The notes beneath the pieces were generated by a model, which did not search any database, had not been told where the DNA came from, and worked only from the letters and a program-made list of their open reading frames with translations. A stretch of DNA of 64,000 nt, from positions 32,001 through 96,000 of IMG/VR virus record IMGVR_UViG_3300027763_000032, one strand, 5' to 3'. The position numbers were made by a program, and so were the translations under genes. The DNA comes from a virus. Shown piece after piece: positions 6,743 to 37,532 of the stretch. The first letter of the stretch is position 1; every line of letters begins with the position of its first letter.

Positions 6743-6753
6743 CGGAGAATAAA

Positions 6754-23160: not shown

Positions 23161-23184
23161 CAAGTATTTTAATTCGTGTATAAT
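23157..23184 (+). promoter_or_regulatory. Sigma70-like promoter for clpA
   Basis: TTGACA(23157)-16 bp-TATAAT(23179). Confidence 0.7.
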
Positions 23185-23211
23185 TAACTCATCATAACCC
23201 AAGGAAACGTA

Positions 23212-25464
23212 ATGGTAGAACCAAGTGATCAATTACAACAAGTATTTGAAAAAGCAGTTGAAGACTGTAAAAAACTTTCGCATGAATATGTAACACTAGA
23301 ACATTTAGTCTATGCTATGCTATGCGAAGAAAAGTTCTTTGAGCTATTGACAAACTTTGGTGCTGATACATCATATATCAAAACCAATTTAGAACACTAT
23401 TTGAAAAATAATCTTGACGAGATTAAAATTGAAAATGCTTCAAAGGGATTTAAACCCAAGAAAACGCAGACAGTTGAGCGTGTACTTAATCGTGCATTTA
23501 CACAGGTCCTGTTTAGCGGCCGTCAAAGCATAGAGCTAGTTGATGTATTCTTAAGCATCCTTAGTGAGAAGCGTAGCTATGCAGTCTACTATATTAATAA
23601 AGGCGGTATTGAGCGCGATAAGTTTGCTGACTTTGTCAACAACGAACTCAACGAAGAGGAAGAAGATACAGTAGTAGATGCACAAAGCGAAAAAGCTCTG
23701 CGAGCATTTACAACCAATCTTAACGATCAAGTTAAGAAAGCTAAAATTGATCCAGTTATCGGTCGAGTTGAAGAGCTTGAACAGATTGCTCTTGGCTTAG
23801 GTCGTCGTACTAAAAACAATGTATTGCTAGTTGGTGATCCTGGTGTTGGTAAGACTGCCATTGCCGAAGGACTGGCATTTAATATTATTCACGGTCAAGT
23901 TCCAGAATTCTTAAAAGAATATACAGTCTATAACTTAGACATCAGTGCTATGCTTGCTGGTAGCAAGTATCGCGGTGACTTTGAAGAACGTTTTAAACTA
24001 GTTCTCAAAGCATTGGGTACTAAAGGTAAAACTGTTTTGTTCATTGACGAAGCACACATGATCAGTGGTGCCGGTGCTGGCGGTAGTAATAGTAGCAATG
24101 ACCTTGCTAACATGATGAAGCCTGCACTAAGCAAAGGCAACATTAAAGTTGTAGCATCAACTACTTGGGAAGAATATCGCAAGTACTTTGAAAAGGATCG
24201 TGCATTGATGCGTCGATTCCAACGCATTACTATTGACGAGCCTACTCCAGAAATGGCTATTGAGATTCTCAAAGGTATTAAGAAGTACTATGAAAAGCAC
24301 CACAATGCTACTATTACCGATGCCGCAGTTGAGACCGCAGTTAAGTTAAGTGTTAAGTATCTAACTGATCGTAAGTTACCTGATAAAGCTATTGACTTGA
24401 TTGATGTTGCTTGCTCACGCTTTAACATTAAACAAGTCGACAACAGAAATGTTGACGTAGCTGAAATTCAGTTTGAGCTTGCTAAGATGGCCAACCTTCC
24501 TGAAGAAACTGTTAAGGAAAAAGAAAGCGAAAATCTTGCTAGCCTTGAAAAGAATCTTAAAGGCGAAGTATATGGTCAAGACGAAGCTATTACTGAAGTT
24601 GTTGACAAGATCCTTGTTGCACAGGCGGGCCTAAAAGCAGAAAACAAACCTATTGGATCATTTGTGTTTATGGGACCAACTGGTGTTGGTAAGACTGAAG
24701 CCGCAAAACAGTTAGCTAGACAGCTAGGTGTGCCGATGATCCGCTTTGATATGAGTGAGTATCAAGAGAAACATTCAGTAAGCAAGTTGATTGGTAGTCC
24801 TCCTGGCTATGTTGGCTTTGAAGAAAATGCAGGTCAATTGATTACCAAGCTACAAGAACAACCACATTGTGTTCTATTACTTGATGAGATTGAAAAGTCA
24901 CACCCAGATGTGTCAACTATCTTGTTACAGTTAATGGACAATGGTAAAGTTACAGGATCAAATGGTAAAGAAGCCGACTGCCGTAACGTAGTGCTTATCA
25001 TGACTACTAACTTAGGTGCGGCTGATGCTGATCGCAACATTATCGGTTTTGGTAGTCAAGAGAATGATTACGAAGATAAAGAACTTAAGAAGTTCTTTGC
25101 TCCAGAGTTCCGTAATCGTTTAGATGGTATTATTACATTCAGTAAGTTAAGCAAAGAAACAATGATCAAGATTGTTGGCAAGTTCCTAGTAGAACTTAAA
25201 GCACAGGTCAACGATAAGGGCATTACTGTTACTATTAGCAACGAAGCTATTGACTACTTGGTAGAAAAAGGCTTTGATAGCAAAATGGGTGCTAGACCTT
25301 TACAACGTGTTATTGACAAAGACGTTAAGCGTCCATTGTCACGTGAGATGTTGTTTGGTAATCTAAAAGACGGTGGTGCTGTTGAAATTGACGTTAATGA
25401 CTCTGGTATTATATTAAAAGTTAAACAGCATGTATCAGAAGAAAACTACCAAACTGTTCTTTAA
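23212..25464 (+). CDS. clpA: ClpA-like Hsp100 AAA+ unfoldase
   Basis: N domain HEYVTLEHL; AAA1 GDPGVGKT, GSKYRGDFEER, LPDKAIDLID; AAA2 GPTGVGKT, RFDMSEY, GARPL. Confidence 0.9.
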   Translation: MVEPSDQLQQVFEKAVEDCKKLSHEYVTLEHLVYAMLCEEKFFELLTNFGADTSYIKTNLEHYLKNNLDEIKIENASKGFKPKKTQTVERVLNRAFTQVLFSGRQSIELVDVFLSILSEKRSYAVYYINKGGIERDKFADFVNNELNEEEEDTVVDAQSEKALRAFTTNLNDQVKKAKIDPVIGRVEELEQIALGLGRRTKNNVLLVGDPGVGKTAIAEGLAFNIIHGQVPEFLKEYTVYNLDISAMLAGSKYRGDFEERFKLVLKALGTKGKTVLFIDEAHMISGAGAGGSNSSNDLANMMKPALSKGNIKVVASTTWEEYRKYFEKDRALMRRFQRITIDEPTPEMAIEILKGIKKYYEKHHNATITDAAVETAVKLSVKYLTDRKLPDKAIDLIDVACSRFNIKQVDNRNVDVAEIQFELAKMANLPEETVKEKESENLASLEKNLKGEVYGQDEAITEVVDKILVAQAGLKAENKPIGSFVFMGPTGVGKTEAAKQLARQLGVPMIRFDMSEYQEKHSVSKLIGSPPGYVGFEENAGQLITKLQEQPHCVLLLDEIEKSHPDVSTILLQLMDNGKVTGSNGKEADCRNVVLIMTTNLGAADADRNIIGFGSQENDYEDKELKKFFAPEFRNRLDGIITFSKLSKETMIKIVGKFLVELKAQVNDKGITVTISNEAIDYLVEKGFDSKMGARPLQRVIDKDVKRPLSREMLFGNLKDGGAVEIDVNDSGIILKVKQHVSEENYQTVL

Positions 25465-26083: not shown

Positions 26084-26101
26084 CCTAACTTCAAAATAGC
26101 A

Positions 26102-26107
26102 TAAATA
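26102..26107 (+). promoter_or_regulatory. Late promoter core heading the putative head-internal protein cluster
   Basis: caTAAATAc before ATG 26131. Confidence 0.6.
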
Positions 26108-26130: not shown

Positions 26131-26475
26131 ATGAGAATGGATGAAGTTACAAACTCAGCGATCAATCTTGAAGAAGTAGACCTACACGACGATCTACACT
26201 TCTTCATGCATAACGATCCTAATTTTTACCGCAAGGTGTTTTTTCCTATGATCAGTAAGGTCAAAGCACACATCAAAGCAGGTAATCGTTGTCACGACGG
26301 AGTTTTTCGTCCCTGTGTAGATAGAGCCGCAGAAGCTTACTGTAAAAAGTTTAATATTCCCGATAATGAAAAGTCAGTGTTTACTGATGTTGACCGCGAC
26401 GAACTAGCCCGTAAGATTTTTGGGCAAGAGAAAGATCGCATTGAACAGGGTGACTATGATGGAGATGACAAATGA
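26131..26475 (+). CDS. Hypothetical protein (MRMDE N-terminus)
   Basis: First gene after the late promoter. Confidence 0.7.
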   Translation: MRMDEVTNSAINLEEVDLHDDLHFFMHNDPNFYRKVFFPMISKVKAHIKAGNRCHDGVFRPCVDRAAEAYCKKFNIPDNEKSVFTDVDRDELARKIFGQEKDRIEQGDYDGDDK

Positions 26476-27233
26476 TTTTATTAGAAGGCGGAAATGTATT
26501 TGCCAACGCAACTCCATTTGACCACAAAGATGTTCCTGCAATACTTAAAACTGTCAACGGAGCACTAGCCGGTACAGGTATTACTGCTATCCCCGTTGGT
26601 TCTGCGGCAACTCCCAAGCCAGGTAAAACTAGCGGAGACATGGACGTTATTGTTGACGAACAGGCAGTACTAAACTACTTCAAAGCCAAAGATGCTAAGG
26701 CAGGCCGTAAGGCACTAAACGATTATATCAGCAGTAAAGGATTAGAAACTGCACAAAGCGGTATTAATGTACACGTAAATGTTCCAGTCGGTGGAGAGTT
26801 TCATCAAGTAGATGTTATGGTATCAGCTAATGCTGAGAAAGTATCTAAGTTTCACACACATGCTATTCCTGATAACAGTCCGTACAAGGGTGTTAACAAA
26901 CAACTGATGATGGCTATACTAGCCAAACAGAAAAACTACATGTGGTCTGCATGGCAAGGATTGTTTAGTCGTACACCAGAAGGTAAGAAAGGCGACCTAG
27001 TTGCCGACAATTTAGATGATGTTGCTAAACACCTATTTGGACCAAATGGTAGTGCTAAAGATTTAGGTAGTGTAGAAAGTATACTTGCGGCTTTGCCAAA
27101 GCAAGAAGCAGATGCATTGTTAGCAAGAGCTAAAGAAGATGCCAACTGGAAAGAAGTGCCAGTCCGTCAAGAAAGTTATCGCATTGGAACTAACGAATGG
27201 TTCCGTCATATGTTGGATAAGGTACAGCTATGA
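26472..27233 (+). CDS. Pol-beta-superfamily nucleotidyltransferase
   Basis: VGS...SGDMDVIVD and a later QVD third acidic residue; MILLE-GG N-terminus. Confidence 0.65.
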   Translation: MILLEGGNVFANATPFDHKDVPAILKTVNGALAGTGITAIPVGSAATPKPGKTSGDMDVIVDEQAVLNYFKAKDAKAGRKALNDYISSKGLETAQSGINVHVNVPVGGEFHQVDVMVSANAEKVSKFHTHAIPDNSPYKGVNKQLMMAILAKQKNYMWSAWQGLFSRTPEGKKGDLVADNLDDVAKHLFGPNGSAKDLGSVESILAALPKQEADALLARAKEDANWKEVPVRQESYRIGTNEWFRHMLDKVQL

Positions 27234-28372
27234 GATTAAGACAACTGTTTAAAGAAGCAGAAGCACCTAAACAGTTAGGTCGCGCATTTAACCACCTAGA
27301 AGATCTAGTTTTCTTTCATGGTACTAAAGGCACACTTGAAGCACTAAGTCATATTAAAGACTTTGCTAGTCAAGAAGGAGCCAATAGTATTCGCATGAAG
27401 TGGGACGGCAATCCACAAATATATTGGGGTCGTGCAGAAGCCAACGGTCCTTTAATACTTGCAGGACATAATGGCTGGAGCAAAGGTGCTGTAACAGATA
27501 GTCCAGAAGCGGTACAAGATTTTATTGCCAACAAGTCGGGAAGTCCCAAGACTCCTGAAGAGAAAGAAGCAAGAGATAAATTTGCCAGCGAGTTTGCTAG
27601 TCTGTATCCCCTGTTTGACAAAGCTACTCCACGAGACTTTGTAGGCTTTGTGTATGCAGATGGTTTGTTCTTACAACAACCTCCAGCAGATAAAGAAGGC
27701 GTATATAACTTTTGTCCCAATAATAAAAGTCAAACGTGTTATCATGTAAGATCCAATAGCGGATTGGGTAAGCGTATTGCTAATGCACAAGTAATGGTAG
27801 TGGGACATGCGTTCTTTCCAGAGTTTGGTATGCCAGATGCTAGTCAAAAGCCTATCAGTGACTTCAGTCAGTTCAATAGTAATCCACAGTTAATTGTTCT
27901 TGGCCCAATATACAACAGCAAGCCTGTTAAAATTGATACTACAGCAGTCGATGCCATTGAGCAGTTTGCACAGGCGCACGGTGGTCAAATGGATGGATTC
28001 CTACAAGGGCTTCCGGGACTAAGCGACCTAAAAAATATTATCTACACTTATGTAAATCAAACTGCCAAAGCAAAACAGTTAGACAGTCTAAGCCCAAAAC
28101 ATTTTACAGATTGGTTAGCTGTATCAAAGACTAGTCCAGGAAAACAACAAAAGATTAATGATCTAGTTGCGGCAAATCCTACTGCACTGGCAACTATCTT
28201 TACATTGGTAAAAAGAATACAGGCAATGAAAGACGACATCATTGATCAAATTGAAGGCGAACAGGGTGAGATATGGGACACAAATGGCGAAGGTCGTGTT
28301 CGATATGCAGATCAAAATAAACAGCTAGGTCACGTTAAACTTGTACCTCGCAAGCGTTGGACGCCGACCTAA
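27230..28372 (+). CDS. ATP-dependent ligase-like adenylyltransferase-fold protein (DUF6267-like)
   Basis: HLEDL, motif I KWDG, motif IV-like GEG, motif V-like VKLV; MRLRQLFKE N-terminus. Confidence 0.55.
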   Translation: MRLRQLFKEAEAPKQLGRAFNHLEDLVFFHGTKGTLEALSHIKDFASQEGANSIRMKWDGNPQIYWGRAEANGPLILAGHNGWSKGAVTDSPEAVQDFIANKSGSPKTPEEKEARDKFASEFASLYPLFDKATPRDFVGFVYADGLFLQQPPADKEGVYNFCPNNKSQTCYHVRSNSGLGKRIANAQVMVVGHAFFPEFGMPDASQKPISDFSQFNSNPQLIVLGPIYNSKPVKIDTTAVDAIEQFAQAHGGQMDGFLQGLPGLSDLKNIIYTYVNQTAKAKQLDSLSPKHFTDWLAVSKTSPGKQQKINDLVAANPTALATIFTLVKRIQAMKDDIIDQIEGEQGEIWDTNGEGRVRYADQNKQLGHVKLVPRKRWTPT

Positions 28373-28381
28373 GGACTTATT

Positions 28382-29653
28382 ATGAAACTAAGACAGCTAT
28401 TTGAAGGACTAGGACAAGAAGTTGCCATTATATTTGGTCGCTTTAATCCCCCGCACAAGGGACATAGAGCCGCATGGGAACTTGCCGCTAAGAGTCCCGT
28501 TTGGTATGTAGGCACAAACGAAAGCACAGTAGGTCCAAAGGATCCATTACCATATGGTATTAAAGTAGAAGCAATGACTGCCATATGGCCAGAAGTTGAA
28601 GGACATATTATTGCAGAAACAAGTTGGCTAACACTAGCTAGTCTAGTATACGAAAAGCACGGTGATGTTACACTACTATGCCTAACTGATGAAGATTGGG
28701 TTACTAAAACTATTGTACAGTACAATGGTAAAGAAGGTGCCCACGGTTTCTATAATTTTAAAACTATTAAACAAAAACCAACACCACGTTTAAGTTCAGC
28801 TACTGCCCTACGTGATGCAGTTTCTAAAGGTGATCGTGAAGCCTTTGCCACTGCCGCAGGTGTAGATGCTGATACGCCTGTTGCTGGTAAACCGTTCTTT
28901 GATCTAGTAGCAGAATACCTGCTACCATACTCTAATGCACCTGTAAAGAAAACTGCAAAGAAAAAAGTTGCGGCTCCTGTGGAAGGCATAGATGAAGGCT
29001 GGAAGGATTTGGCAATAGGTGGAGCAATGGCTTTGGGCGCTCTAGGTGCAGGACACTCTCAGGCAGCAGACTTGAGTCATTTTAACACACAATATCTACA
29101 ACAAGTGGTCAAAGGAGAACATCCTCGTCCAATGGTTAGCATTGATGATGCTAAACAAGAATTACAGGATAGAGCAAACGGTAAGAAACAAGCTACAGCT
29201 CCTGCTAGAATTGATTTACCGAGCGGATCGAATGGTTTTAGTAAAGAATATCTACAAAAGGCGGCGGACCCAGATCGATTTGGTAGATACATGATTAGCG
29301 TAGAAAAGGCGCAAGAACTATTGAATAAAATAAACAAAGGTACGACAGAAGGTATTATGAGTTTTTTAAAAAGCGAGCCTCCTAAAAAGAAATGGAATCC
29401 TGCTAAAGATTCAATAGTAGTTAGTAACAAAAAAGACGACGAAGCATGGATCAAACTTTTATTAGATAAACATCGTAGAGGTATCGAACTTACAGATCGT
29501 GAATGGAATTCAATCCAGCAATGGAAACTAAAACGTAATATGAAAGGTGAGGATGCGGCAGGTGTAGGTATTATTACTAAACAGAATTCAACTGTGGATG
29601 TAAACAAAGGTACGCCCCGTAAAAATCTCAAAGCATTTAGACTAGTAAAATGA
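28382..29653 (+). CDS. HIGH-family (cytidylyl/NMN adenylyl)transferase with modular C-terminal extension
   Basis: FGRFNPPHKGH, SSATALR; MKLRQLFE N-terminus. Confidence 0.75.
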   Translation: MKLRQLFEGLGQEVAIIFGRFNPPHKGHRAAWELAAKSPVWYVGTNESTVGPKDPLPYGIKVEAMTAIWPEVEGHIIAETSWLTLASLVYEKHGDVTLLCLTDEDWVTKTIVQYNGKEGAHGFYNFKTIKQKPTPRLSSATALRDAVSKGDREAFATAAGVDADTPVAGKPFFDLVAEYLLPYSNAPVKKTAKKKVAAPVEGIDEGWKDLAIGGAMALGALGAGHSQAADLSHFNTQYLQQVVKGEHPRPMVSIDDAKQELQDRANGKKQATAPARIDLPSGSNGFSKEYLQKAADPDRFGRYMISVEKAQELLNKINKGTTEGIMSFLKSEPPKKKWNPAKDSIVVSNKKDDEAWIKLLLDKHRRGIELTDREWNSIQQWKLKRNMKGEDAAGVGIITKQNSTVDVNKGTPRKNLKAFRLVK

Positions 29654-29937
29654 AACAATATAAGATAACAAGTCAAGACTTAAATCAGGATAGCCCTGAT
29701 GATTGTTATCTTGCGCCTGATGATCCTGTACACGAACTAAAAATATTATCAGGCATGGGCGGACTAGGTGCCGAAGCTAGACTACATGAGTATCGTGCTA
29801 ATCAAGGCAGTAACATTAGTGTTACCGGCAACAGTAAGGGCGAGCTAATGAAGAAGCATAACATACAGCCAGGAACTCAAGAATGGTTTAAGCTATGGTT
29901 TAGTCTGCCTTATCTCACAGGGGAGCCACCTGTATGA
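29650..29937 (+). CDS. Hypothetical protein
   Basis: ATGA-coupled; C-terminal NIQPGTQEWFKLWFSLPYLTGE. Confidence 0.7.
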   Translation: MKQYKITSQDLNQDSPDDCYLAPDDPVHELKILSGMGGLGAEARLHEYRANQGSNISVTGNSKGELMKKHNIQPGTQEWFKLWFSLPYLTGEPPV

Positions 29938-30068
29938 GATTACGCGAACTGTTTGAACATAAAAAAGGCATTCGTGCCAAAAAATATAACAAAAAACCTA
30001 AGAAGTTTATTGAACCTATTAAACCTAAAAAAGCGGAGTCGCCGCAAACTACTAAGGAACCATCATGA
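29934..30068 (+). CDS. 44-aa Lys-rich peptide with capsid-targeting-like N-terminus (not in ORF track)
   Basis: MRLRELFE-HKKGIRAKKYNKKPKKFIEPIKPKK...; ATGA overlaps at both ends. Confidence 0.7.
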   Translation: MRLRELFEHKKGIRAKKYNKKPKKFIEPIKPKKAESPQTTKEPS

Positions 30069-30397
30069 AAATACGTGAACTATTAGAAGCAAAAACTAAA
30101 AAAGCCGAAGCACCTAAGCCTCGTAACTTTGTAGCTAAAAATGCTATTAATACAGGCGCTGGCGCACACAAAGACAAAAAGAAAGCCGCAAAGCAAGGTG
30201 ATGCTAAACACAAGAATAAAGACTATGAAATGGCTGAATCTGCTAGTGCAGGTGCAACTAGTGCGGCTAACGTAGGAGTTGGTCCAGTATACCCTAACAA
30301 AACAGGTAAAACTAATAAGAATAAAGACGGTACAACAAAAAATGCGCTGGATGTTAAGGGCACTAACTTACTCACCGGTGGCAGCTTAAAACGCTAA
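30065..30397 (+). CDS. Basic putative head-internal protein
   Basis: MKIRELLE N-terminus; internal MAE-SASAGATS. Confidence 0.7.
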   Translation: MKIRELLEAKTKKAEAPKPRNFVAKNAINTGAGAHKDKKKAAKQGDAKHKNKDYEMAESASAGATSAANVGVGPVYPNKTGKTNKNKDGTTKNALDVKGTNLLTGGSLKR

Positions 30398-30400
30398 ATA
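30395..30400 (+). promoter_or_regulatory. Late promoter core (TAAATA)
   Basis: cTAAATAt before ATG 30424. Confidence 0.55.
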
Positions 30401-30423
30401 TATAAAGATAACGGAGTTACCTC

Positions 30424-31482
30424 ATGCAACCACAAGTACAAATGCAAGGACCAGATGACGAAGGCGGAATGGCCCGTGCTGACCTATATAGAGCTGCCAA
30501 GCACTCTATGAAACTGTTTCAAATGATTCAGAATAACCAACAGTTAGAAGGTTGGGTACAAGCAAAGATTACTAAAGCGGCAGATTACTTAGACAGTATC
30601 TACCACTATATGGAATATCAAGTAAAGTTTGGACAAGGCGCTGTTGCGTCAAGTGTTGATGACATTACTGGAGATATGGAAACTGCCGCTCGTGCCGCAG
30701 AAGAAGCCGATGACGAAAAAACTGATATGGAAGAATCTATGAACTACGAACAAAAACTACAGGCACTATTAGAAAGTGCCGTTAAGAAAGCCAAGAAAGA
30801 TTATGATGGCGATGGCAAAGTTGAAACAAACAAAGATGAAGTTTGGGGATCACGTGCCAAGGCTGCGGCAAAAGCAGGCAAGCCATTCAAAGAAGGTTTC
30901 CCAACTGTCGATGATGCAAAGAAAAATGCACAGGGTACAGCAGGCATGAAGCCAGGCGAAAAGAAAAAGTCTAGCACTGGTGGTACTATTGAAAAGACAG
31001 CAACAGGTATCAAACATACTGCTGGTAAGAACTACAGCGGCAAAGGTGCTGAAGCTGATAAGAAAGTCAAAGAAGAAAAGTTTGATCCATTAAAGCACGT
31101 TAAGAATCCTACTCCAGGTGAGAAGAAAGCCGCTAAAGATGTCAAGCGCGGTAGCTATGCAGATCGTGCGGCAATGTTAAAGTCAGCTGAAAGAGACGGA
31201 CGTTTAAAAGAAGCTGATGCTAAATGTAATCACACTGAAAAGGGCGAGAAGTGTCCAGTACACGGTCTAAAAGAATGTGGTAGTACAATGGCATACGAAG
31301 CGGCAAAACCAAGTGCAGGCATGAGTAAAGGTGCTAAGTCAGCATTAGTTAAAAAAGCTAAAGCTGGCGGTGACGTTGGCAAGCCAGGCAAGAGTTTTGA
31401 CAAAGTAGCCAAGTCAGCAGGTGGTGGTGAGAAAGGCAAACGTATTGCCGCTGCCGCTATGTGGAAGAACGCTGCCAAATAA
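30424..31482 (+). CDS. Modular K/A/E-rich putative head-internal protein
   Basis: Short modules separated by xxE sites; DYDGDGK Ca-binding-like loop; CNH..C.VH...C. Confidence 0.65.
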   Translation: MQPQVQMQGPDDEGGMARADLYRAAKHSMKLFQMIQNNQQLEGWVQAKITKAADYLDSIYHYMEYQVKFGQGAVASSVDDITGDMETAARAAEEADDEKTDMEESMNYEQKLQALLESAVKKAKKDYDGDGKVETNKDEVWGSRAKAAAKAGKPFKEGFPTVDDAKKNAQGTAGMKPGEKKKSSTGGTIEKTATGIKHTAGKNYSGKGAEADKKVKEEKFDPLKHVKNPTPGEKKAAKDVKRGSYADRAAMLKSAERDGRLKEADAKCNHTEKGEKCPVHGLKECGSTMAYEAAKPSAGMSKGAKSALVKKAKAGGDVGKPGKSFDKVAKSAGGGEKGKRIAAAAMWKNAAK

Positions 31483-31495
31483 GGAATAGACAAAA

Positions 31496-32584
31496 ATGGA
31501 TATGAAGAAAATATTACAAGCCTTTGACGGGGCAACTACAAAGAAGCCTGTTCAAGGTGCTAATGATATGAAGAAGTTTGTATCTATTGTTCGAGAAAGT
31601 ACGAATCCTTACACACCTGCACAAGAATCTGTTATTACAAGTTTTGAAGAAGGTTCAGTAGGCGGTGATGCTAATGCATTTTTATTGGCTGCGGATACTA
31701 TTCAAGACGAAGTAATGGCACAGGTCAACAAGATTAAAATCAACGCAGACGAAGCTAGTCTACGTGACATGATGGAAAAGTTTAATGCTTTCATGACTGC
31801 TTACCACAACGTCGGTAAAGGCATTCTACAACCAGACATGTTTAATGACAGCATGGGAGAAAGCGCAGAAGAACAAGTTGATGAAGCAGGTTCATATCGT
31901 CGTCCAGGTAGCTCATCTGCATACGATAGAGATTATGCATCAAGTGTAAGCGGCATGGGCAAGAAGGATTCATTAGCCTATCAACAAGACGGCGGAGCCA
32001 ACGACGAAGGTTGGGGTAAAGAGCCGTATCAAGCACCACAAGACAAACCTAAAATGACCGGCATGTTCTTTTATAATGTGCAACCTGGACAAGAACAAGA
32101 GGCGGCCAGCTTGGGCGTTAAGAAAACCAAGAGCGGTAAATGGGCAAAGACCAAGTATAATACAAGTGGTCGATCATTTAATATGCAAAAAGATCTAGCT
32201 GACAAAGCATTTGGTGTTGGCAAGTGGTGGGCTCCTAAAAACGAAAGCATTGAAGAAGGTACAGAAAATCGTTGTATGCAATGCGGTATGACAAGTTGCA
32301 AGTGTCCAGGTGATAGTTGCAAGTGTAAACCTATTGCAGGATGGGTACCAGGCAAGGGTTTTAAGAAAGCCATGGAAGAAGCTAAAGAAAAAACAATGAG
32401 TCGTGCGGCTAAAGGCAACGAAAAGTATGGCAAGGACGGAATGAAAGAGCTTGCTAAAGCAGGTCGTGAAGGTGCTAGCGAAGAACAGTTAGATAAAATC
32501 CGTGACAAGCATGACAAATATAGCGAAGGCCTAAGTTTTAAAGATTATGTAAACTTAGCAGAAGCTAAGAAAGGTCTAGAATAA
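31496..32584 (+). CDS. Modular putative head-internal protein
   Basis: Multiple xxE-delimited modules; Cys cluster CMQCGMTSCKCPGDSCKC. Confidence 0.65.
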   Translation: MDMKKILQAFDGATTKKPVQGANDMKKFVSIVRESTNPYTPAQESVITSFEEGSVGGDANAFLLAADTIQDEVMAQVNKIKINADEASLRDMMEKFNAFMTAYHNVGKGILQPDMFNDSMGESAEEQVDEAGSYRRPGSSSAYDRDYASSVSGMGKKDSLAYQQDGGANDEGWGKEPYQAPQDKPKMTGMFFYNVQPGQEQEAASLGVKKTKSGKWAKTKYNTSGRSFNMQKDLADKAFGVGKWWAPKNESIEEGTENRCMQCGMTSCKCPGDSCKCKPIAGWVPGKGFKKAMEEAKEKTMSRAAKGNEKYGKDGMKELAKAGREGASEEQLDKIRDKHDKYSEGLSFKDYVNLAEAKKGLE

Positions 32585-32973
32585 TGAGACTATTAGCATT
32601 AGTATTAGCAGTTGCTTTAACTGGCTGTGCAAGTGTTAAAGATATGATTCCTAGTTTTCAGGATCCTAATCAGTCAGCTAAAATTATTGATGTGCGTCAA
32701 AGTGTAGCACAGTTAGATTGCAAACAACCACACGCACCGCAAGTTAAACAGATTAAAGATAACCTACAATGGTTTGAACTATATAGTACTAGCAAAGGTT
32801 CTAGACAAAACGATGTATTACGTTTAATCAAGCCAATGCAAGAGACTGTAGATGATTTTTACAAGCGCAGTACAAGCGAAAAGCAAGGCAGTGATGCATA
32901 TTGCGAGATTAAGAAAAAGTTAATGTCTACACAAGCTGAACGTGCGGCTAGTGCAGTACTAGGGAGATTCTAA
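32584..32973 (+). CDS. Lipoprotein
   Basis: Lipobox ALTGC after a hydrophobic leader. Confidence 0.75.
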   Translation: MRLLALVLAVALTGCASVKDMIPSFQDPNQSAKIIDVRQSVAQLDCKQPHAPQVKQIKDNLQWFELYSTSKGSRQNDVLRLIKPMQETVDDFYKRSTSEKQGSDAYCEIKKKLMSTQAERAASAVLGRF

Positions 32974-33206
32974 TGAACGAACTTATTCAATGTATTAACT
33001 CAGGTAAAGGTTGGGCCGCTGAACGTGCTAACACAGCATATCAGATTGGTCAAGCACTACAAGCTGGACAGATTAATCCAAGCGAAGCAAAAGAATTATT
33101 AGAGGACCTAGTTAGAACAGATAGATTAGATGCTGAAGCAGACGATATGGCTCTTAAGGCCATGTTAGTAACAGGCATCTATGCAGTAATACAAATATGT
33201 GGATAA
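32973..33206 (+). CDS. Hypothetical protein coupled to the lipoprotein gene
   Basis: Overlapping stop/start. Confidence 0.65.
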   Translation: MNELIQCINSGKGWAAERANTAYQIGQALQAGQINPSEAKELLEDLVRTDRLDAEADDMALKAMLVTGIYAVIQICG

Positions 33207-33642
33207 TATGGAACAGTTAATCAACGCATTAAAAATAGCATTTGCTAGCGAATATGCATTTGCACTAAAGGCACAAAACTTTCATTGGAATACAGAGGGT
33301 GCAGACTTCTACGAATTTCACTTGTTGTTTGAAACAATATATGACGAAGTATACGGAAGCATAGATGCATTCGCAGAAAATATTCGTAAGAGCGGAGGTT
33401 ATACTCCGGCAAGTCTAGCTAAGTTTAGTATGCTAACTGTAGTTGAAGATGAAAATGCTGTTCCAGATGCTAGAGCCATGACTGCTGAACTATTAGCAGA
33501 CAGCGATAAATTAGCACAGATGATGGCAATGGTTTACAAGATGGCTGATGCGGCCGGAGAATACGGGCTAAGTAATTTTCTTGCAGAGCGTCAAGATGCA
33601 CATCGCAAGCACAGTTGGTTTTTACGTTCTACACTAAAATGA
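33199..33642 (+). CDS. dps: Dps / DNA-binding ferritin-like protein
   Basis: NFHWNTEGADFYEFHLLFETIYDE...DAFAENIR...RKHSWFL ferroxidase signature. Confidence 0.9.
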   Translation: MDNMEQLINALKIAFASEYAFALKAQNFHWNTEGADFYEFHLLFETIYDEVYGSIDAFAENIRKSGGYTPASLAKFSMLTVVEDENAVPDARAMTAELLADSDKLAQMMAMVYKMADAAGEYGLSNFLAERQDAHRKHSWFLRSTLK

Positions 33643-33716
33643 ACCCAGATCAATATCCAGTATACCCAGAAGATGATGGCTATGACCGTTTCCGCAATCC
33701 TTACAGCCCTGTTTGA
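33639..33716 (+). CDS. Micro-ORF (25 aa)
   Basis: MNPDQYPVYPEDDGYDRFRNPYSPV; ATGA overlap with the dps stop. Confidence 0.45.
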   Translation: MNPDQYPVYPEDDGYDRFRNPYSPV

Positions 33717-33720
33717 CAAT

Positions 33721-33804
33721 ATGATTGAAGGACTTGCTCGCTTTGGTTGGGGCATGGTCGGAGTAGCGTATCCTATTATAGAAAATGATTATGAGAGCAA
33801 ATGA
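33721..33804 (+). CDS. Micro-ORF (27 aa)
   Basis: MIEGLARFGWGMVGVAYPIIENDYESK fills the gap. Confidence 0.35.
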   Translation: MIEGLARFGWGMVGVAYPIIENDYESK

Positions 33805-34513
33805 ATTTATAACTGAATCGTGGAGTCAAAAATACAAAAAGAGTATTAACTGCTCACACCCTAAAGGCTTTAGTCAAAAGGCACACTGTGCCGGCAAGAA
33901 GAAACACAACGAAAGTGTTGAAATGGAAATGGTCTTCCCTGATTGCAATATGTGTGAATCCCATGGCAATGTTATGGAAATTAAGAAAGGTGCTAAAGAC
34001 AGCAACGGCTTTACTAAATGTTGGTCTGGATATCATGCCGCAGGTACAAAACAAGGTAAGAACGGTTCAGTACGTAACTGTGTAAAGAATGAAAGCACAG
34101 AGCTAGAAGAAGAGTTCGATCTTATTGAATCAATTATATCCGACCTAGCTTTACGCAATGGTGTTAACGAAGATGCTGTCTGGGAAGATTTAGAAACACT
34201 CACAGACGATGAGCTATATGTGTTTGCTGTTACACAACCAGTTAATGAAGATTGGCAAAAAGTCAACAAACATGATAAGACTTCAGGTATGAGTCAAAAG
34301 GCTGTTAATGCCTATCGCAGAGAAAACCCAGGTAGTAAATTAAAAACTGCTGTAACGACTAAACCTAGTAAACTAAAAAGAGGTAGCAAAAGTGCCAAAC
34401 GTCGATCAAGCTATTGTTCTAGATCAGCTGGTCAAAAACGTATGCATCATATAGATTGTTCAAAGACTCCAGATAAAGCAATCTGTGCGGCACGTCGTCG
34501 TTGGAACTGTTAA
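33791..34513 (+). CDS. Modular basic/Cys-containing putative head-internal protein
   Basis: MRANEFITE N-terminus; modules WSQKYKKSINCSHPKGFSQKAHC, CWSGY and KRRSSYCSRS...RRRWNC. Confidence 0.7.
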   Translation: MRANEFITESWSQKYKKSINCSHPKGFSQKAHCAGKKKHNESVEMEMVFPDCNMCESHGNVMEIKKGAKDSNGFTKCWSGYHAAGTKQGKNGSVRNCVKNESTELEEEFDLIESIISDLALRNGVNEDAVWEDLETLTDDELYVFAVTQPVNEDWQKVNKHDKTSGMSQKAVNAYRRENPGSKLKTAVTTKPSKLKRGSKSAKRRSSYCSRSAGQKRMHHIDCSKTPDKAICAARRRWNC

Positions 34514-35274
34514 TGCGAGCAAAAGAGTTCCAGCCAAAAAAACTAGTTATCTTTGATATAGATGACACGCTGGTTCATACACAAACTAAAGTCCACGTGG
34601 TCAAAGACGGACAGGTAACTAAAGAACTTAACAGTCATGAGTTTACACACTATAAACTACAACCGGGAGAACAGTTTGATTTTGAGAACTTTCGTAACGC
34701 ACATGACTTTTTCCACAAAAGTAAACCGATCATTCCAATGATGAATCAACTCAAGCAAGACATCGCTACTGGTAACAAAGTAGTAATGGTAACTGCTCGT
34801 GCTGACTTTGATGATAAAGAGCTATTCTTAGATACATTCCGCAAGTATGGTGTAGACATGGCAAAAGTTCATGTTTATCGTGCAGGCAATATGACTGGCA
34901 AGATTCAAACAGAAGAAAAGAAAAAAATTATTATACGTAACTTGTTAGACAAGGACATTTATACTAAAGCCATAATGTATGATGATGCTGTTCCTAACTT
35001 AGAATCATTTGTAGAACTTAAGAAAGAATATCCAAAGACCAAGTTCTATGCCTGGCATGTTAGCTTAGAGGGCAAAGCAAGCGAATATCAACGTACCGAT
35101 GAAAATTTTGCTGATGGAAAGCACCCAGAAGATAAAGGTGATGCTAAACGTCACGGCATTAACACTAAAGCATCAGTAAGCAGTTTACGTAAAACTGCTA
35201 AACAAGGTGGCCGTAAAGGTCAACTAGCACACTGGTTAGCTAACATGAAAGCAGGGCGAGCAAAGAAACATTAA
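34513..35274 (+). CDS. HAD-family phosphatase (T4 Pnkp 3'-phosphatase-like) with a basic C-terminal module
   Basis: IFDIDDTL, VTAR, MYDD motifs; MRAKEF N-terminus; tail after TDE-NFADGK. Confidence 0.75.
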   Translation: MRAKEFQPKKLVIFDIDDTLVHTQTKVHVVKDGQVTKELNSHEFTHYKLQPGEQFDFENFRNAHDFFHKSKPIIPMMNQLKQDIATGNKVVMVTARADFDDKELFLDTFRKYGVDMAKVHVYRAGNMTGKIQTEEKKKIIIRNLLDKDIYTKAIMYDDAVPNLESFVELKKEYPKTKFYAWHVSLEGKASEYQRTDENFADGKHPEDKGDAKRHGINTKASVSSLRKTAKQGGRKGQLAHWLANMKAGRAKKH

Positions 35275-35278
35275 AGAA

Positions 35279-35385
35279 CACACTACCTTAGGACCAGTAC
35301 TCGTTACTGACTCAAGTGTGCGCAGGCTGCTGGCGCAGGACGGCCCGATTCGCTACCGGGAATCCTGGAAGTGAGCATTTTTTTA
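35279..35385 (+). ncRNA. Candidate structured RNA element (unassigned family)
   Basis: GC-rich non-coding island: cacact/agtgtg, cagta/tactg, tgcgc/gcgca, cagga/tcctg and cccg/cggg stems, ending in a T7-8 run. Confidence 0.5.
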
Positions 35386-35389
35386 CGGA

Positions 35390-35395
35390 TAAATA
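35390..35395 (+). promoter_or_regulatory. Late promoter core (TAAATA)
   Basis: gaTAAATA 4 nt before the desaturase ATG. Confidence 0.5.
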
Positions 35396-35399
35396 TTAG

Positions 35400-36104
35400 A
35401 TGATTATATTATATACGCTAATAGTAACACATATTACAATTGTCTGCGTTACCCTGTTCCTACATAGGGGACAAGCACATAGAGGATTTGTGTTTAATCC
35501 CCTGCTAGAACACTTTATGAGATTCTGGCTATGGCTAACAACTGGCATGGTTACTAAACAATGGGTGGCTATACACCGCAAGCATCACAGATTTAGTGAT
35601 GAGTCTGGTGATCCGCATAGTCCTCATGTATATGGTATATGGCGAGTACTATTTAAAGGTGCAGGATTATATCATTCTGCAAGCAAAGACGCTGAAATGA
35701 TCCAACAGTACGGTGTAGGTACACCTGATGATTGGGTCGAACGCAACGTGTACACCCAACACAGTCGCCTGGGCATTCTCCTAATGTTAGTCATAGACTT
35801 ATTGTTATTTGGGCCGTTAGGCATTGTAGTGTGGGGTGTACAAATGATATGGATTCCATTCTGGGCCGCTGGTGTTATTAACGGTGTCGCTCATTGGATA
35901 GGATATCGCAATGGCACTACTAAAGATCAAAGCCGCAATATCAGTCCTTGGGGTATTATAATAGGCGGTGAAGAACTGCATAACAACCATCATCTCGAGC
36001 CGGCAAACCCTAAACTAAGCAGACGTTGGTTTGAGTTTGACTTGGGCTGGATGTGGTTTACTGTATTTAAAACACTTAGACTAGCTAAACTTAGATCAGT
36101 TTAA
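35400..36104 (+). CDS. desA: Delta-9-type membrane fatty acid desaturase
   Basis: His boxes HRGQAH, HRKHH and ELHNNHH; TM segments. Confidence 0.9.
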   Translation: MIILYTLIVTHITIVCVTLFLHRGQAHRGFVFNPLLEHFMRFWLWLTTGMVTKQWVAIHRKHHRFSDESGDPHSPHVYGIWRVLFKGAGLYHSASKDAEMIQQYGVGTPDDWVERNVYTQHSRLGILLMLVIDLLLFGPLGIVVWGVQMIWIPFWAAGVINGVAHWIGYRNGTTKDQSRNISPWGIIIGGEELHNNHHLEPANPKLSRRWFEFDLGWMWFTVFKTLRLAKLRSV

Positions 36105-36772
36105 AATTTATAGTTAAAACGATCAATTAATGGTTTTGAAGAGTCAGCAACTACAATTCTTAAATGATCTGTGTATAATGTTTGATAGCTAACTAAACGA
36201 TTTTCAACATTTTTATGTTGGGCTGTATTTAATAACAGATCAATCTCACTATTTAAATCACCCGACTCTACTAACATCTGTCGAAGGTCAGCGGCAATAT
36301 TCTCAGTAGTTCCTATCTTAGTTGCGGTAGCAATAAAATTACTGCTAACTACATCATACAAACTTCCGCTAGTAGATAACCACATTTCCCAAAACGGTGA
36401 TTGTGAAGTATTCCTTACTAAATCCGAGGACTTAGATAATATTGACACTTTCTTTTTATACATGTCTGTAGGACAGCATAAAGTTTCTGTAAATTCAGCA
36501 AACGACGGAGTATTGCCAAATGCACGGATTAGGGGGTCGATAAAATTGTCTGCTGGATTATAAATTTCCGACCCATAAATTAAATAATGATACAGACTGT
36601 TATACCATTGCCATGGGTTCCTAACAAACAAATATACGTTAGGACGATGAAAATCATTGGATGGTAGCCTATGTCCAAAATCCTCAATTGTTATTGATTT
36701 CAAAACTTCTCTAACCCAGTTCCCACCAGTCTTAGGCATGTGCAGATATAGCGCATTATTAGTAACTATCAT
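36101..36772 (-). CDS. Sulfotransferase-family protein
   Basis: 5'-PSB-like HMPKTGG and 3'-PB-like FVRNPWQWYNSLY; likely start at 36772. Confidence 0.7.
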   Translation of the reverse strand: MIVTNNALYLHMPKTGGNWVREVLKSITIEDFGHRLPSNDFHRPNVYLFVRNPWQWYNSLYHYLIYGSEIYNPADNFIDPLIRAFGNTPSFAEFTETLCCPTDMYKKKVSILSKSSDLVRNTSQSPFWEMWLSTSGSLYDVVSSNFIATATKIGTTENIAADLRQMLVESGDLNSEIDLLLNTAQHKNVENRLVSYQTLYTDHLRIVVADSSKPLIDRFNYKF

Positions 36773-36779
36773 ATAGAAA

Positions 36780-36796
36780 TATTTATATGATAAATA
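36780..36796. promoter_or_regulatory. Back-to-back divergent late promoter cores
   Basis: TATTTA(36780-85)-tatga-TAAATA(36791-96). Confidence 0.6.
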
Positions 36797-36801
36797 ATAG
36801 C

Positions 36802-37185
36802 ATGAGAGCAAAAGAATTTATTGTTGAGCAGGGCAAGGGCGGAATGAAGAAAATTGATCCCGCCTTTAAAGCCGCGATGAAAAATGCCATGACCATTCCT
36901 TCAATGAATCAAAGTACAGGTTCAGCGTACTTAGGGTGGAGAATGAACATTGCTCTTGCAGGTGCTCCTGATTATCCAACCAAGATGGAAGCAGATAACT
37001 GGATTGGTGGAGATCCTTTAATTAGTACATATACAGAAGAAGAATATGAAATGGTCAAGGCCGCATCATTAGCAGTAGGCGGAGGCTCTATTCAAAATTG
37101 GTCTGGCAAACGCAGTGAAGAACTGCCAGATACTAATAAAACAAGCACAGTGGCTAAACCAAAACGTAACAAATACGGCGTATGA
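36802..37185 (+). CDS. Putative head-internal protein
   Basis: MRAKEFIVE N-terminus. Confidence 0.7.
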   Translation: MRAKEFIVEQGKGGMKKIDPAFKAAMKNAMTIPSMNQSTGSAYLGWRMNIALAGAPDYPTKMEADNWIGGDPLISTYTEEEYEMVKAASLAVGGGSIQNWSGKRSEELPDTNKTSTVAKPKRNKYGV

Positions 37186-37496
37186 AAATAAACGAACTAT
37201 TAACAGAAGCACCCATTGACTTTGATCCTAGTGAACCAATGAATCCCTTAGTACATAGTCATCAGGGAGCCAATCCAGGCAAGCTACAATATCGTATGCT
37301 ACGTGCGGCAGGACAGTTAAAGGATCTTGCCAAAAGAGCAGAACACGCTAGTCCTTTAGAATGGGAAATGATTTCCAAAAACTTTTCAGAGCTAGCAATG
37401 AACGTTGAACAGATTAGACATGGTCTAGAAGAACTTGCCGCACAACGTAAAAAGGGTGGCGTCCGTTCAAGAGGCATTGATCCAAACATTGGATAA
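37182..37496 (+). CDS. Putative head-internal protein
   Basis: MKINELLTE N-terminus. Confidence 0.7.
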   Translation: MKINELLTEAPIDFDPSEPMNPLVHSHQGANPGKLQYRMLRAAGQLKDLAKRAEHASPLEWEMISKNFSELAMNVEQIRHGLEELAAQRKKGGVRSRGIDPNIG

Positions 37497-37503
37497 AATA
37501 TAG

Positions 37504-37532
37504 TTGACACAGTCAACACAAGGCTATATAAT
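37504..37532 (+). promoter_or_regulatory. Sigma70-like promoter for the replication genes
   Basis: TTGACA(37504)-17 bp-TATAAT(37527); the -35 lies within the palindrome GTTGAC-aca-GTCAAC. Confidence 0.85.

Follow-up and report, generated by a model that had tools for sequence, protein, structure and literature searches.

The Alt protein of phage T4, an ADP-ribosyltransferase, is a large enzyme with an N-terminal propeptide that is cleaved by gp21, and it is both packaged into the virion and injected. In the T4 genome record (NC_000866), such propeptides read MKTYQEFIAE in internal proteins (IPs) II and III, MAKINELLRE in gp24, MELITELFDE in Alt, and MLKEQLIAE in gp22. A review of T4 assigns residues 4 and 7 of the capsid targeting sequence (CTS) to targeting and residues 8 and 10 to processing, and the IPs, as well as fusions to the CTS, are ejected into the host with the DNA. 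The CTS of IPI, IPII, and IPIII is treated by Mullaney and Black (1996) and Repoila et al. (1994), as relayed in PMC9026906 and PMC3012670. In the phiKZ-like giant phages (SPN3US, phiKZ, and 201phi2-1), many head-internal proteins are cut after Glu by a prohead protease related to that of T4, and their propeptides are thought to target proteins to the prohead. The T4 tag has hitherto been studied mainly in T-even coliphages.

Here, we analyze a gene cluster in an uncultured freshwater jumbo phage related to T4. The window is a stretch of 64,000 nucleotides (positions 32,001 to 96,000 of IMG/VR record IMGVR_UViG_3300027763_000032), which lies on a contig of 121 kb. We consider it probable, at roughly three chances in four, that the short peptides with which these genes begin are T4-type CTSs on head-bound cargo that includes several enzymes.

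Occurrence of the tag

An earlier note on this DNA listed ten N-termini as sharing a capsid-targeting-like tag. Each of them was found at its given coordinate, and the claim holds for eight of the ten genes, but fails for the gene at 26472, which is untagged, and is doubtful for the one at 26131, which is weakly tag-like. The motif scan of the whole proteome proposed in that note was run with the strict pattern M[KR]x[RNKDQ][EQ][LFIM][LIFVQ]x0-2E on the 121-kb contig, each of its six frames being covered; the motif can also be written more narrowly as M-[KR]-x-[RNK]-[EQ]-[LF]-[LIF]-(x)-E. Seven matches were obtained (27230, 28382, 29934, 30065, 33791, 36802, and 37182), all at the starts of ORFs and all confined to the cluster, where they span about 10 kb (27230-37182), with no match elsewhere in the six frames. 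The chance expectation is about 0.07 over 4035 ATGs, or 0.002 over the 121 predicted N-termini of the contig, the remainder of which do not fit the tag motif.

The eighth copy, MRAKEFQPKK at 34513, is degenerate, with the first six residues in place and the closing Glu lacking; peptides such as MKITDLLE and MKIIDLFE begin its orthologues. In the MRMDEV start at 26131, a cleavage Glu is not clearly discernible around position 8-9, and the corresponding N-termini of orthologues are MLLRELDE or MKIVEFFDQ. MILLEGGNVF, at 26472, was rejected as a tag, as ILLE begins a conserved enzyme core; many orthologues are without ILLE yet retain GGxVF.

Anatomy and conservation of the tag

Across about 1.3 Mb of related contigs, a broad tag pattern occurs 203 times at N-termini versus 42 times internally, and is distributed over 36 protein clusters. 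Position 3 is Leu, Ala, or Ile and position 6 is Leu, Phe, or Ile in a set of 144 unique tags, and these two positions align with positions 4 and 7 of the T4 CTS in a register that is one residue shorter. Among the unique tags from relatives, P3 is Leu or Ile in 120 of 133 (90%), P1 is Glu at residue 8 or 9, and P1' is mostly Ala, Ser, or Asn. Six of the eight tags in the window possess the closing [L/I]-x-Glu, the exceptions being 27230, with Phe at P3, and 34513, with no Glu.

In 120 orthologues of the 27230 protein, the N-terminus is a variable peptide of 9-13 residues, and, where shown, its [LI]xE end abuts the conserved core KQLGRAFNHLEDLVFF. The ratio of internal [LI]xE sites is 0.86 (CI 0.52-1.22) in the mature parts of tagged proteins versus 1.19 (1.06-1.34) in untagged proteins, which should be read as a trend only, toward depletion in the mature parts. 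Tags in the T4 register are present in marine cyanophages and a Methylophilales phage, and the shortened form is found in this phage and in hundreds of related contigs.

Gene content and putative cargo

The tagged genes of the cluster and the untagged ones at 26472 and 30424..33642 lie on the + strand. Directly upstream are genes for ClpA (23212-25464) and DnaJ (22330-23160), and a ClpP-like gene was seen by eye earlier on the contig. The first gene (26131..26475) encodes a 114-aa protein and is followed by the untagged gene at 26472..27233 (253 aa); neither product matches a family in Pfam or PHROG.

The 380-aa protein encoded at 27230..28372 bears the tag MRLRQLFKE and belongs to Pfam DUF6267 (E 8.5e-16). 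Residues K57-W-D59-G60, which would correspond to K-x-D-G with the motif I lysine, are invariant in 40 orthologues. Its AF2 model (pLDDT 84, with residues 1-17 disordered) aligns with many ligase adenylyltransferase domains over 160-190 residues at Z ~4-5, a weak score below the level that separates true from chance matches; no sequence match was found in the PDB, and an Atlas lead points to RNA_ligase (score 0.75). We refer to it as a ligase-like nucleotidyltransferase. The next gene (28382..29653) combines the tag MKLRQLFE with a domain that matches phrog_3041 cytidyltransferase (E 7e-13) and a 250-aa C-terminal extension. The H-x-G-H motif is present as GRFNPPHKGH at residues 19-28, while the match to PF01467 CTP_transf_like, at 17.7 bits, falls under the Pfam cut-off of 21, as does that to TIGR00125 under its own. 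We refer to the protein as cytidylyltransferase/NMNAT-like.

Two small basic products follow: a 44-aa lysine-rich peptide with the tag MRLRELFE (29934..30068; mature pI 10.3), the same tag being found in relatives at the start of ORFs of 135 and 279 aa, and a 110-aa Ala/Gly/Lys-rich protein with the tag MKIRELLE (30065..30397; phrog_1359; pI 10.2). The tag MRANEFITE at 33791..34513 opens a 240-aa protein with a Cys-rich region and a basic C-terminal DUF6321 domain (Pfam, E 3e-9), and the degenerate tag at 34513..35274 precedes a HAD/PNK-phosphatase-like protein that matches phrog_415 polynucleotide kinase (E 4.5e-11), with HAD-IA under the cut-off. The last two tagged genes encode proteins of 127 aa (MRAKEFIVE, 36802..37185) and 104 aa (MKINELLTE, 37182..37496) with no known family in Pfam or PHROG. 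Untagged genes are interspersed among these; the stretch at 30424..33642 encodes two low-complexity proteins (352 and 362 aa), a lipoprotein, a 77-aa protein, and a Dps/ferritin-like protein, and a desaturase and a Pol-beta-type enzyme are also among the untagged products.

That the tags sit on otherwise unrelated proteins, as had been proposed, was borne out by the Pfam and PHROG searches, in which the mature parts fall to DUF6267, a cytidylyltransferase-like family, DUF6321, a HAD-like family, and three with no family. The ligase-like protein, the NMNAT-like protein, and the basic DUF6321 protein are very probably new cargo under such tags.

Promoters and gene order

The earlier note placed the tagged genes downstream of TAAATA late promoters. 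This is correct for two of them, since ATAAATA directly precedes 26131 (26101..26107, 30 nt upstream, likely the head of a transcription unit) and 36802 (36790..36796, 12 nt upstream), but the remaining tagged genes lack an individual motif and are closely packed behind the one at 26101, with stop codons that overlap the next start codon. A third copy is found ahead of the desaturase gene at 35400, which is untagged. In all, ATAAATA occurs 11 times on the + strand of the contig; 10 of these copies fall between genes or at the edge of a gene, in most cases 11-30 nt ahead of a start. These late-promoter-like signals flanking the cluster appear to be of late type, which supports the T4-type reading. 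No strong sigma-70 site was found inside the cluster. Directly after the last tagged gene lies a sigma-70 consensus promoter (37504..37532, +, 12/12); by its sequence, this is an early-type promoter, with which the DsbA-like/DNA polymerase unit begins and the tagged cluster ends.

One might suppose that the shared start is a feature of the mRNA, such as an initiation context or the site of a translational repressor, or is left over from duplication or recombination of 5' ends, and that the peptide has no role. Many starts do share an ATGA with the stop of the preceding gene, so that the second codon must begin with A, which favors Lys or Arg, and the first codons are A/T-rich. However, the conserved positions of the tag are written in varied codons (position 6 as TTT, CTA, ATT, TTA, ATA, CTG, TTC, and CTT), many of them synonymous or class-conserving, so that residue class is retained, which argues for selection on the peptide and not on the DNA. 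Moreover, the tag diverges among orthologues yet its pattern persists, and the regions around the upstream ribosome sites are unlike one another. We regard this alternative as very improbable.

Prohead protease and scaffold in a relative

The genes for the prohead protease, scaffold, and capsid are not on this 121-kb contig, a fragment estimated as 33% complete. A colinear contig with 85-93% nucleotide identity (G001) encodes a portal and a T4-type, gp21-family prohead protease (Peptidase_S77, E 2e-27; phrog_207, E 2e-57). The scaffold of this relative begins with MLDALKQLFE and contains 20 [LI]xE sites, LSE41 precedes the conserved core of its capsid protein, and a 78-aa core protein has a tag-like N-terminal peptide.

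The tag might route proteins into the prohead for assembly only, as accessories of the core or scaffold or as counter-ions of the DNA that are then degraded or retained. T4 core proteins gp22, gp67, and gp68 have such N-termini and are degraded, the scaffold and the 78-aa core protein of the relative begin with tag-like peptides, and several tagged or neighboring proteins are basic, of low complexity, and rich in Lys, Ala, and Gly. Against this, internal [LI]xE sites are few or lacking in the enzyme cargo (zero in the 27230 protein) versus the 20 of the scaffold, folded enzymes are improbable scaffolds, and T4 proteins loaded by a CTS reach cells; a role limited to assembly is, in our judgment, distinctly unlikely.

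Evidence from cyanophage virions

Cyanophage S-CREM2, which is in culture, is a distant relative whose tags are 10-mers in the T4 register, compared with 8-9 residues in the window. All five of its annotated starts that fit a T4-derived tag pattern are in the published virion proteome of 52 of 219 proteins (p ~6e-4, to be read with the pattern having been set after the virion N-termini were viewed), and virion mass spectrometry does not separate head-internal proteins from contaminants. The five are a SAM hydrolase, a kinase, a cytidylyltransferase, ORF13, and ORF136. One of them, ORF154, is homologous to the 28382 protein, and ORF137, also detected in virions, is homologous to the 33791 protein, with 75% identity to its C-terminus.

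NMNAT-like or cytidylyltransferase proteins were reported in purified virions of S-SCSM1, S-CBWM1, and S-CREM2 (PMC9602691, PMC10665884), and neither of these papers, in a term search, refers to a capsid targeting sequence or to internal proteins. In a single enzyme family, the tag is present in the aquatic phages Melnitz-2, S-SZBM1, and P-SSM2, and absent from the enterobacterial jumbo phages 121Q and CBB; CBB_73 is not in the CBB virion table. The claim that this is a portable tag of T4 type is supported by the match to T4 propeptides, the conserved [LI]xE ending, the protease and scaffold in the relative, and the S-CREM2 virion detections.

These detections also bear on the notion that the ClpA/ClpP or DnaJ system of the phage recognizes the peptide, as a degron or an unfolding handle and not as a capsid signal. 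The position of ClpA and DnaJ beside the cluster would suit it, and a survey of jumbo phages speculated that ClpA may translocate unfolded proteins or assist virion assembly. The same types of tag, however, occur in T4 and on virion proteins of S-CREM2, whose record has no annotated ClpA gene, and the closing [LI]xE suits the specificity of gp21. ClpA degrons are not known to have this tag pattern, and a chaperone or protease tag seems to us highly improbable.

Proposed mechanism and significance

If the peptides are T4-type CTSs, the tagged genes would be expressed late, most of them within a single translationally coupled unit. Each peptide, which is basic at position 2 and hydrophobic at positions 3, 6, and 7 and has Glu or Gln as residue 5, would bind the scaffolding core of the assembling prohead, so that the attached protein is enclosed. 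A prohead protease of the gp21 family would cleave behind the Glu (residue 8 or 9) with which the closing [L/I/F]-x-E ends, releasing the mature protein inside the head, and the cargo would exit with the DNA at infection, as T4 internal proteins and Alt do. Core binding, packaging, cleavage, and co-injection in this phage are inferred by analogy, and the effectors envisaged in the earlier note are putative.

A more speculative extension, which we hold to be rather unlikely, is that the tag loads an enzymatic toolkit for the first minutes of infection (the ligase-like nucleotidyltransferase, the NMNAT-like adenylyltransferase, and possibly the PNK-type phosphatase), which would be injected with the DNA and repair cleaved tRNA or RNA, or restore NAD+, before phage expression. 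Were this true, it would pre-empt abortive-infection defenses, such as anticodon nucleases and NAD+-depleting TIR/SIR2 systems, and account for the recurrent NMNAT-like proteins in cyanophage virions.

With the main reading, it becomes simple to predict from sequence which accessory proteins travel in the heads of aquatic T4-like phages. The reading suggests how NMNAT-like enzymes, a SAM hydrolase, and a kinase came to be detected in cyanophage virions, findings that were published but left unexplained. It also flags enzymes and unknown small proteins as candidate factors acting at DNA entry, and the tag could serve as a packaging handle in engineering these phages.

Comparison with known systems

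The NMNAT-like virion proteins of T4-like cyanophages belong to the same enzyme family as the 28382 protein, and the members in S-CREM2 and P-SSM2 have T4-type tags; the 28382 protein differs from them in its 8-residue tag and its long C-terminal extension. The propeptides of the phiKZ-like phages, from another lineage, are mostly >100 residues long with the cleavage motif A/S-x-E, and have no short shared N-terminal tag.

The closest counterparts are in T4. MRAKEFIVE, MKINELLTE, and MRLRELFE follow T4 propeptide patterns with one residue fewer; MRAKEFIVE pairs with MKTYQEFIAE of IPII and IPIII, the gp24 propeptide MAKINELLRE is almost MKINELLTE, and Alt MELITELFDE resembles MRLRELFE. MKINELLTE heads the 104-aa protein in the window, whereas in T4 its counterpart heads gp24, a capsid vertex protein; neither an ADP-ribosyltransferase nor a gp24 paralogue was found here. 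As with the T4 IPs, a short, portable N-terminal peptide is common to unrelated proteins, with hydrophobic targeting positions and a closing [L/I]-x-E, and the genes, several of which encode small basic cargo proteins, are clustered in a variable locus. The window tags differ in having 8-9 residues, compared with 10-19 in the T4 IPs, with one fewer before the Glu-hydrophobic core, and in carrying Arg or Lys as residues 2 and 4, in place of the Lys-Thr-Tyr of the T4 IPs. None of the mature parts is homologous to the T4 IPs, and host and habitat differ as well. Finally, unlike the T4 IPs, the locus brings together eight tagged genes in a single run of 10 kb, and large enzymes make up about half of the cargo mass.

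The shared N-terminal tag

Eight unrelated proteins, encoded by genes starting at 27230 to 37182 of the window, carry a real, strongly non-random tag: a short shared N-terminal peptide that closes with Glu in all but one of them. An earlier note had counted ten tagged genes; all ten of the N-termini it listed were found in place, and eight of them carry the tag, while the start of 26131 is weakly tag-like and has been downgraded, and 26472 is untagged. The latter was rejected because its ILLE is a conserved enzyme N-terminus, missing in many orthologues that keep GGxVF.

The note had proposed a motif scan of the proteome; here a regular expression made from these N-termini (M[KR]x[RNKDQ][EQ][LFIM][LIFVQ]x0-2E) was matched against the 121-kb contig translated in six frames. 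It gave 7 matches, all at plausible ORF heads in the cluster, between 27230 and 37182, and each 3–12 codons past an in-frame stop; from proteome residue frequencies, chance would give 0.07 matches over 4035 ATGs and 0.002 over 121 predicted N-termini. No tag-like start was seen among the remaining predicted N-termini of the contig. The 34513 protein starts MRAKEFQPKK, keeping the first six tag residues and missing the closing Glu, and has orthologues with fuller tags (e.g., MKITDLLE).

This IMG/VR viral contig, whose bases 32001–96000 form the window, has a completeness of 33% (CheckV). Its T4-type family B DNA polymerase (38175–40844) has the jumbo phages Phosso, Atu_ph07, and Vibrio 2.275.O as best cultured relatives (44–52% identity), and megablast found no match to the whole region among cultured phages. 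When the 27230 protein was used as the query against viral contigs, 80 loci were returned, one of them on the related contig G001. This 152.8-kb contig is colinear with ours (85–93% nucleotide identity) and extends 84 kb beyond it.

Tagged putative cargo and untagged neighbors

The tagged proteins differ widely in predicted function. The 27230 product is a DUF6267 protein with an invariant K-x-D-G; its structural model had no Foldseek match at E ≤ 0.001, and a wide structural search gave weak but repeated matches to ligase adenylyltransferase domains (Z ~5); the protein is putatively ligase-like. In the 28382 protein there is a GRFNPPHKGH motif, and its family matches are to phage cytidyltransferases. 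A faint match to KwaB/DUF4868 within its C-terminal extension (at residues 290–384) was set aside as probable noise, its E values of 0.003–0.004 in two libraries being far below the cut-off. The C-terminal domain of the 33791 protein is a basic DUF6321, a family often seen in cyanophages and pelagiphages, and the 34513 protein is HAD/PNK-phosphatase-like. Genes 29934 and 30065 encode small, very basic proteins, whereas the products of 36802 and 37182 had no family match. PDB sequence searches with the 27230, 28382, and 34513 proteins gave no match, PADLOC and NCBIfam scans of the cargo returned nothing above cut-offs, and no relevant paper on DUF6267 or DUF6321 was found.

Untagged genes are interspersed among the tagged ones, including accessory genes of host-like character for a Dps/ferritin-like protein (33199–33642, + strand), a membrane fatty-acid desaturase (35400–36104, + strand), and a 223-aa protein with no assignment (36101–36772, − strand), as well as a lipoprotein gene and others; the tag thus marks particular genes and is not a regional trait. 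On two related contigs (L008 and L010), ORFs of 135 and 279 aa start with the same ten residues, MRLRELFEHK, as the 44-aa tagged ORF at 29934–30068, which may be either what is left of a truncated gene or a head peptide of small size and basic character.

ATAAATA, the core sequence of T4-type late promoters, has 11 copies on the + strand of the contig, 10 of them intergenic or at gene edges, mostly 11–30 nt before a start. The earlier note had placed the cluster downstream of TAAATA late promoters, which holds for 26131 (copy at 26101, + strand) and 36802 (36790, + strand), but the third regional copy (35389, + strand) precedes the untagged desaturase gene. Genes 26131 to 35274 are tightly packed, with overlapping stops and starts, and no strong sigma-70 site was found inside the cluster. 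Eight bases past the last tagged gene there is a perfect sigma-70 consensus, TTGACA-17-TATAAT (37504–37532, + strand), ahead of the genes for a DsbA-like protein (37555) and the DNA polymerase. We infer that this order would fit a late transcription unit with an early one next to it.

Directly upstream of the tag cluster (22330–25464, + strand) lie genes for a full-length ClpA (750 aa; TIGR02639, E 1e-268) and a DnaJ of 276 aa. Earlier on the contig, before the window (positions ~6300–6900), there is a ClpP-typical N-terminus, MSNLVPMVVE.... These genes may be a phage ClpAP and co-chaperone set. The tag may be a handle for the ClpA encoded so close to the cluster, and roles of this kind for phage ClpA have been a matter of speculation in a jumbo-phage survey; the near-identity of the tag to T4 propeptides and the detection of tagged homologues in virions count against this reading.

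Conservation of the peptide

To compare codons and residues, 144 unique tag 5′ ends were pooled from the contig and its relatives. Codons vary at conserved tag positions while the residue class is kept (position 6 is encoded by TTT, CTA, ATT, TTA, ATA, CTG, TTC, or CTT), and the tag differs among orthologues of one protein while the pattern is kept (MRLRQLFKE, MRLREFFIKE, MRANEFLKE, and MRAREFLRE). Varied codons and varied tags under a constant pattern argue that selection acts on the peptide, not on a nucleotide signal. The common start may still be an mRNA-level feature, a suggestion that again fits poorly with near-identity to T4 propeptides and with tagged homologues in virions.

The consensus is M1 [R/K]2 [L/A/I]3 [R/N/K]4 [E/Q]5 [L/F/I]6 [F/I/L]7, with Glu at 8 or 9. 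Three positions ahead of this closing Glu, 120/133 unique tags have L or I, and A, S, or N most often follows it; the exceptions in the window are one tag with F at P3 (the closing Glu being P1) and one without Glu. Over the contig and its relatives (~1.3 Mb), a broad tag pattern occurs 203 times N-terminally versus 42 times internally, spread over 36 protein clusters. These were defined by a 50%-coverage rule, which replaced single-linkage clustering because the latter merged almost all tagged proteins via shared low-complexity or C-terminal modules.

Among the listed orthologues of the 27230 protein, 120/120 start with a variable peptide of the tag kind, 9–13 residues long; in those missed by the regular expression it ends in L-Q-E, I-R-E, or I-V-E, with the conserved core directly after. 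AlphaFold modeled the 27230 protein with a mean pLDDT of 84 and with residues 1–17 disordered, as expected for an appended propeptide. Within the mature window cargo, internal [LI]xE sites are clearly depleted, to half the expected number (5 versus 10.1). Averaged over the 36 tagged families, the ratio is 0.86 (CI 0.52–1.22), versus 1.19 (CI 1.06–1.34) for untagged proteins, a depletion that is non-significant and a trend only.

The DUF6267 homologue of S-WAM2 (KU686211.1, 7989–9194) has an annotated start, MQTKWDG, that lies inside the K-x-D-G motif and too far downstream, the ORF and the tblastn match both starting ~47 codons earlier. Such misplaced starts could hide N-terminal tags in public annotation.

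Head machinery in a related contig

A prohead protease and a capsid protein were searched for on our own contig, a 33% fragment, and neither was found. The 84-kb extension of G001 contains a T4-type head module comprising a portal protein, a 78-aa core protein starting MILRELF (87177–87413, reverse-complement coordinates) between portal and protease, an acidic 272-aa protein, a Peptidase_S77 prohead protease (E 2e-27; phrog_207, E 2e-57), a 363-aa protein in the scaffold position that starts MLDALKQLFE and has 20 [LI]xE sites, and a major capsid protein in which LSE, at residue 41, comes just ahead of the mature conserved core. From this module, the lineage appears to have the enzyme, core, and cleavage logic required by the tag, the protease being known solely from the relative. 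A predicted complex between that protease and residues 1–45 of the 36802 product scored 0.02, which is uninformative either way.

Near the head module (80019–81197, reverse-complement coordinates), G001 also encodes a 392-aa Ala/Gly/Lys/Thr-rich protein that starts MKLYEVLLE and has only two [LI]xE sites, both in its first nine residues. The tag-like starts of this protein and of the 78-aa protein adjoin the head module, outside the main cluster.

Tagged homologues in cyanophage virions

In the cytidylyltransferase family, the aquatic phages are tagged, namely Melnitz-2 gp18 (MKKFSEIIE), S-SZBM1_140 (MRFRQFIIE), P-SSM2_194 (MKSFSQFLTE), and S-CREM2 ORF154 (MKNFSSFLTE), whereas two enterobacterial jumbo phage proteins (121Q gp418 and CBB_73) start, untagged, a few residues ahead of the Rossmann strand. 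The untagged CBB homologue is not in the CBB virion table, which makes a weak negative control.

CsCl-purified S-CREM2 virions contain 52/219 proteins according to the paper describing them. A pattern from the T4 rule (hydrophobic at 4, F/L/I/M at 7, hydrophobic at 8, and Glu at 10) has six ORF-start matches genome-wide in S-CREM2, five of them annotated starts: ORF6 (SAM hydrolase, with the tag MKDFDSFLEE), ORF13, ORF14 (kinase), ORF136, and ORF154 (cytidylyltransferase). All five annotated proteins are in the virion list (hypergeometric p ~6e-4, indicative only, since the pattern was fixed after the virion N-termini of this phage had been seen). ORF154 is homologous to the 28382 protein (25% identity, E 2e-6), and the 33791 protein has 75% identity at its C-terminus to that of ORF137, which was likewise detected in virions. 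The virion-detected "Cas9-like nuclease" ORF12 (OR473000.1, 7704–10313, − strand) has a tag-like LRFASFMAE at residues 17–25, behind an unusual 16-residue leader; that Leu is a CTG codon, and either the propeptide of ORF12 may be longer or its start may be wrongly placed.

A second cyanophage paper reports NMNAT-like proteins in three virion proteomes and argues for virion carriage. Neither a targeting sequence nor internal proteins turned up in a term search of both papers (PMC9602691 and PMC10665884), and no relevant paper on a capsid targeting sequence in cyanophages was found. Alternatively, the tagged proteins may be packaged with a role in assembly only; this reading, the ClpA handle, and the mRNA-level feature all explain less than capsid targeting.

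Comparison with phage T4

T4 genes were taken from NC_000866. The start of IPII and IPIII, MKTYQEFIAE, is closest to the window tag MRAKEFIVE, that of gp24 (MAKINELLRE) to MKINELLTE, and that of Alt (MELITELFDE) to MRLRELFE; gp22 (MLKEQLIAE) can be compared with the scaffold start MLDALKQLFE of G001, and IPI (MKTFKEF...ITE) has no window counterpart. The patterns are the same, but the window tags have one residue fewer ahead of the Glu-hydrophobic core. In every T4 IP, [LI]xE occurs a single time, within the propeptide. A review of T4 head assembly defines the capsid targeting sequence as IPIII residues 1–10, with targeting mainly by residues 4 and 7 and processing by residues 8 and 10; Asp at residue 10 blocks cleavage and keeps targeting. 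Positions 4, 7, 8, and 10 correspond to window-tag residues 3, 6, 7, and 9 in the shorter register.

The earlier note had read the tag in this T4 manner, and near-identity to T4 propeptides together with tagged homologues in S-CREM2 virions favors it: by analogy, the best explanation of the tag is a T4-type capsid targeting sequence, which the prohead protease would remove. The principle is already known from T-even phages; what is new is the lineage, the shorter form of the tag, the size of the array, the enzyme cargo, and the link to the unexplained virion-associated enzymes of cyanophages.
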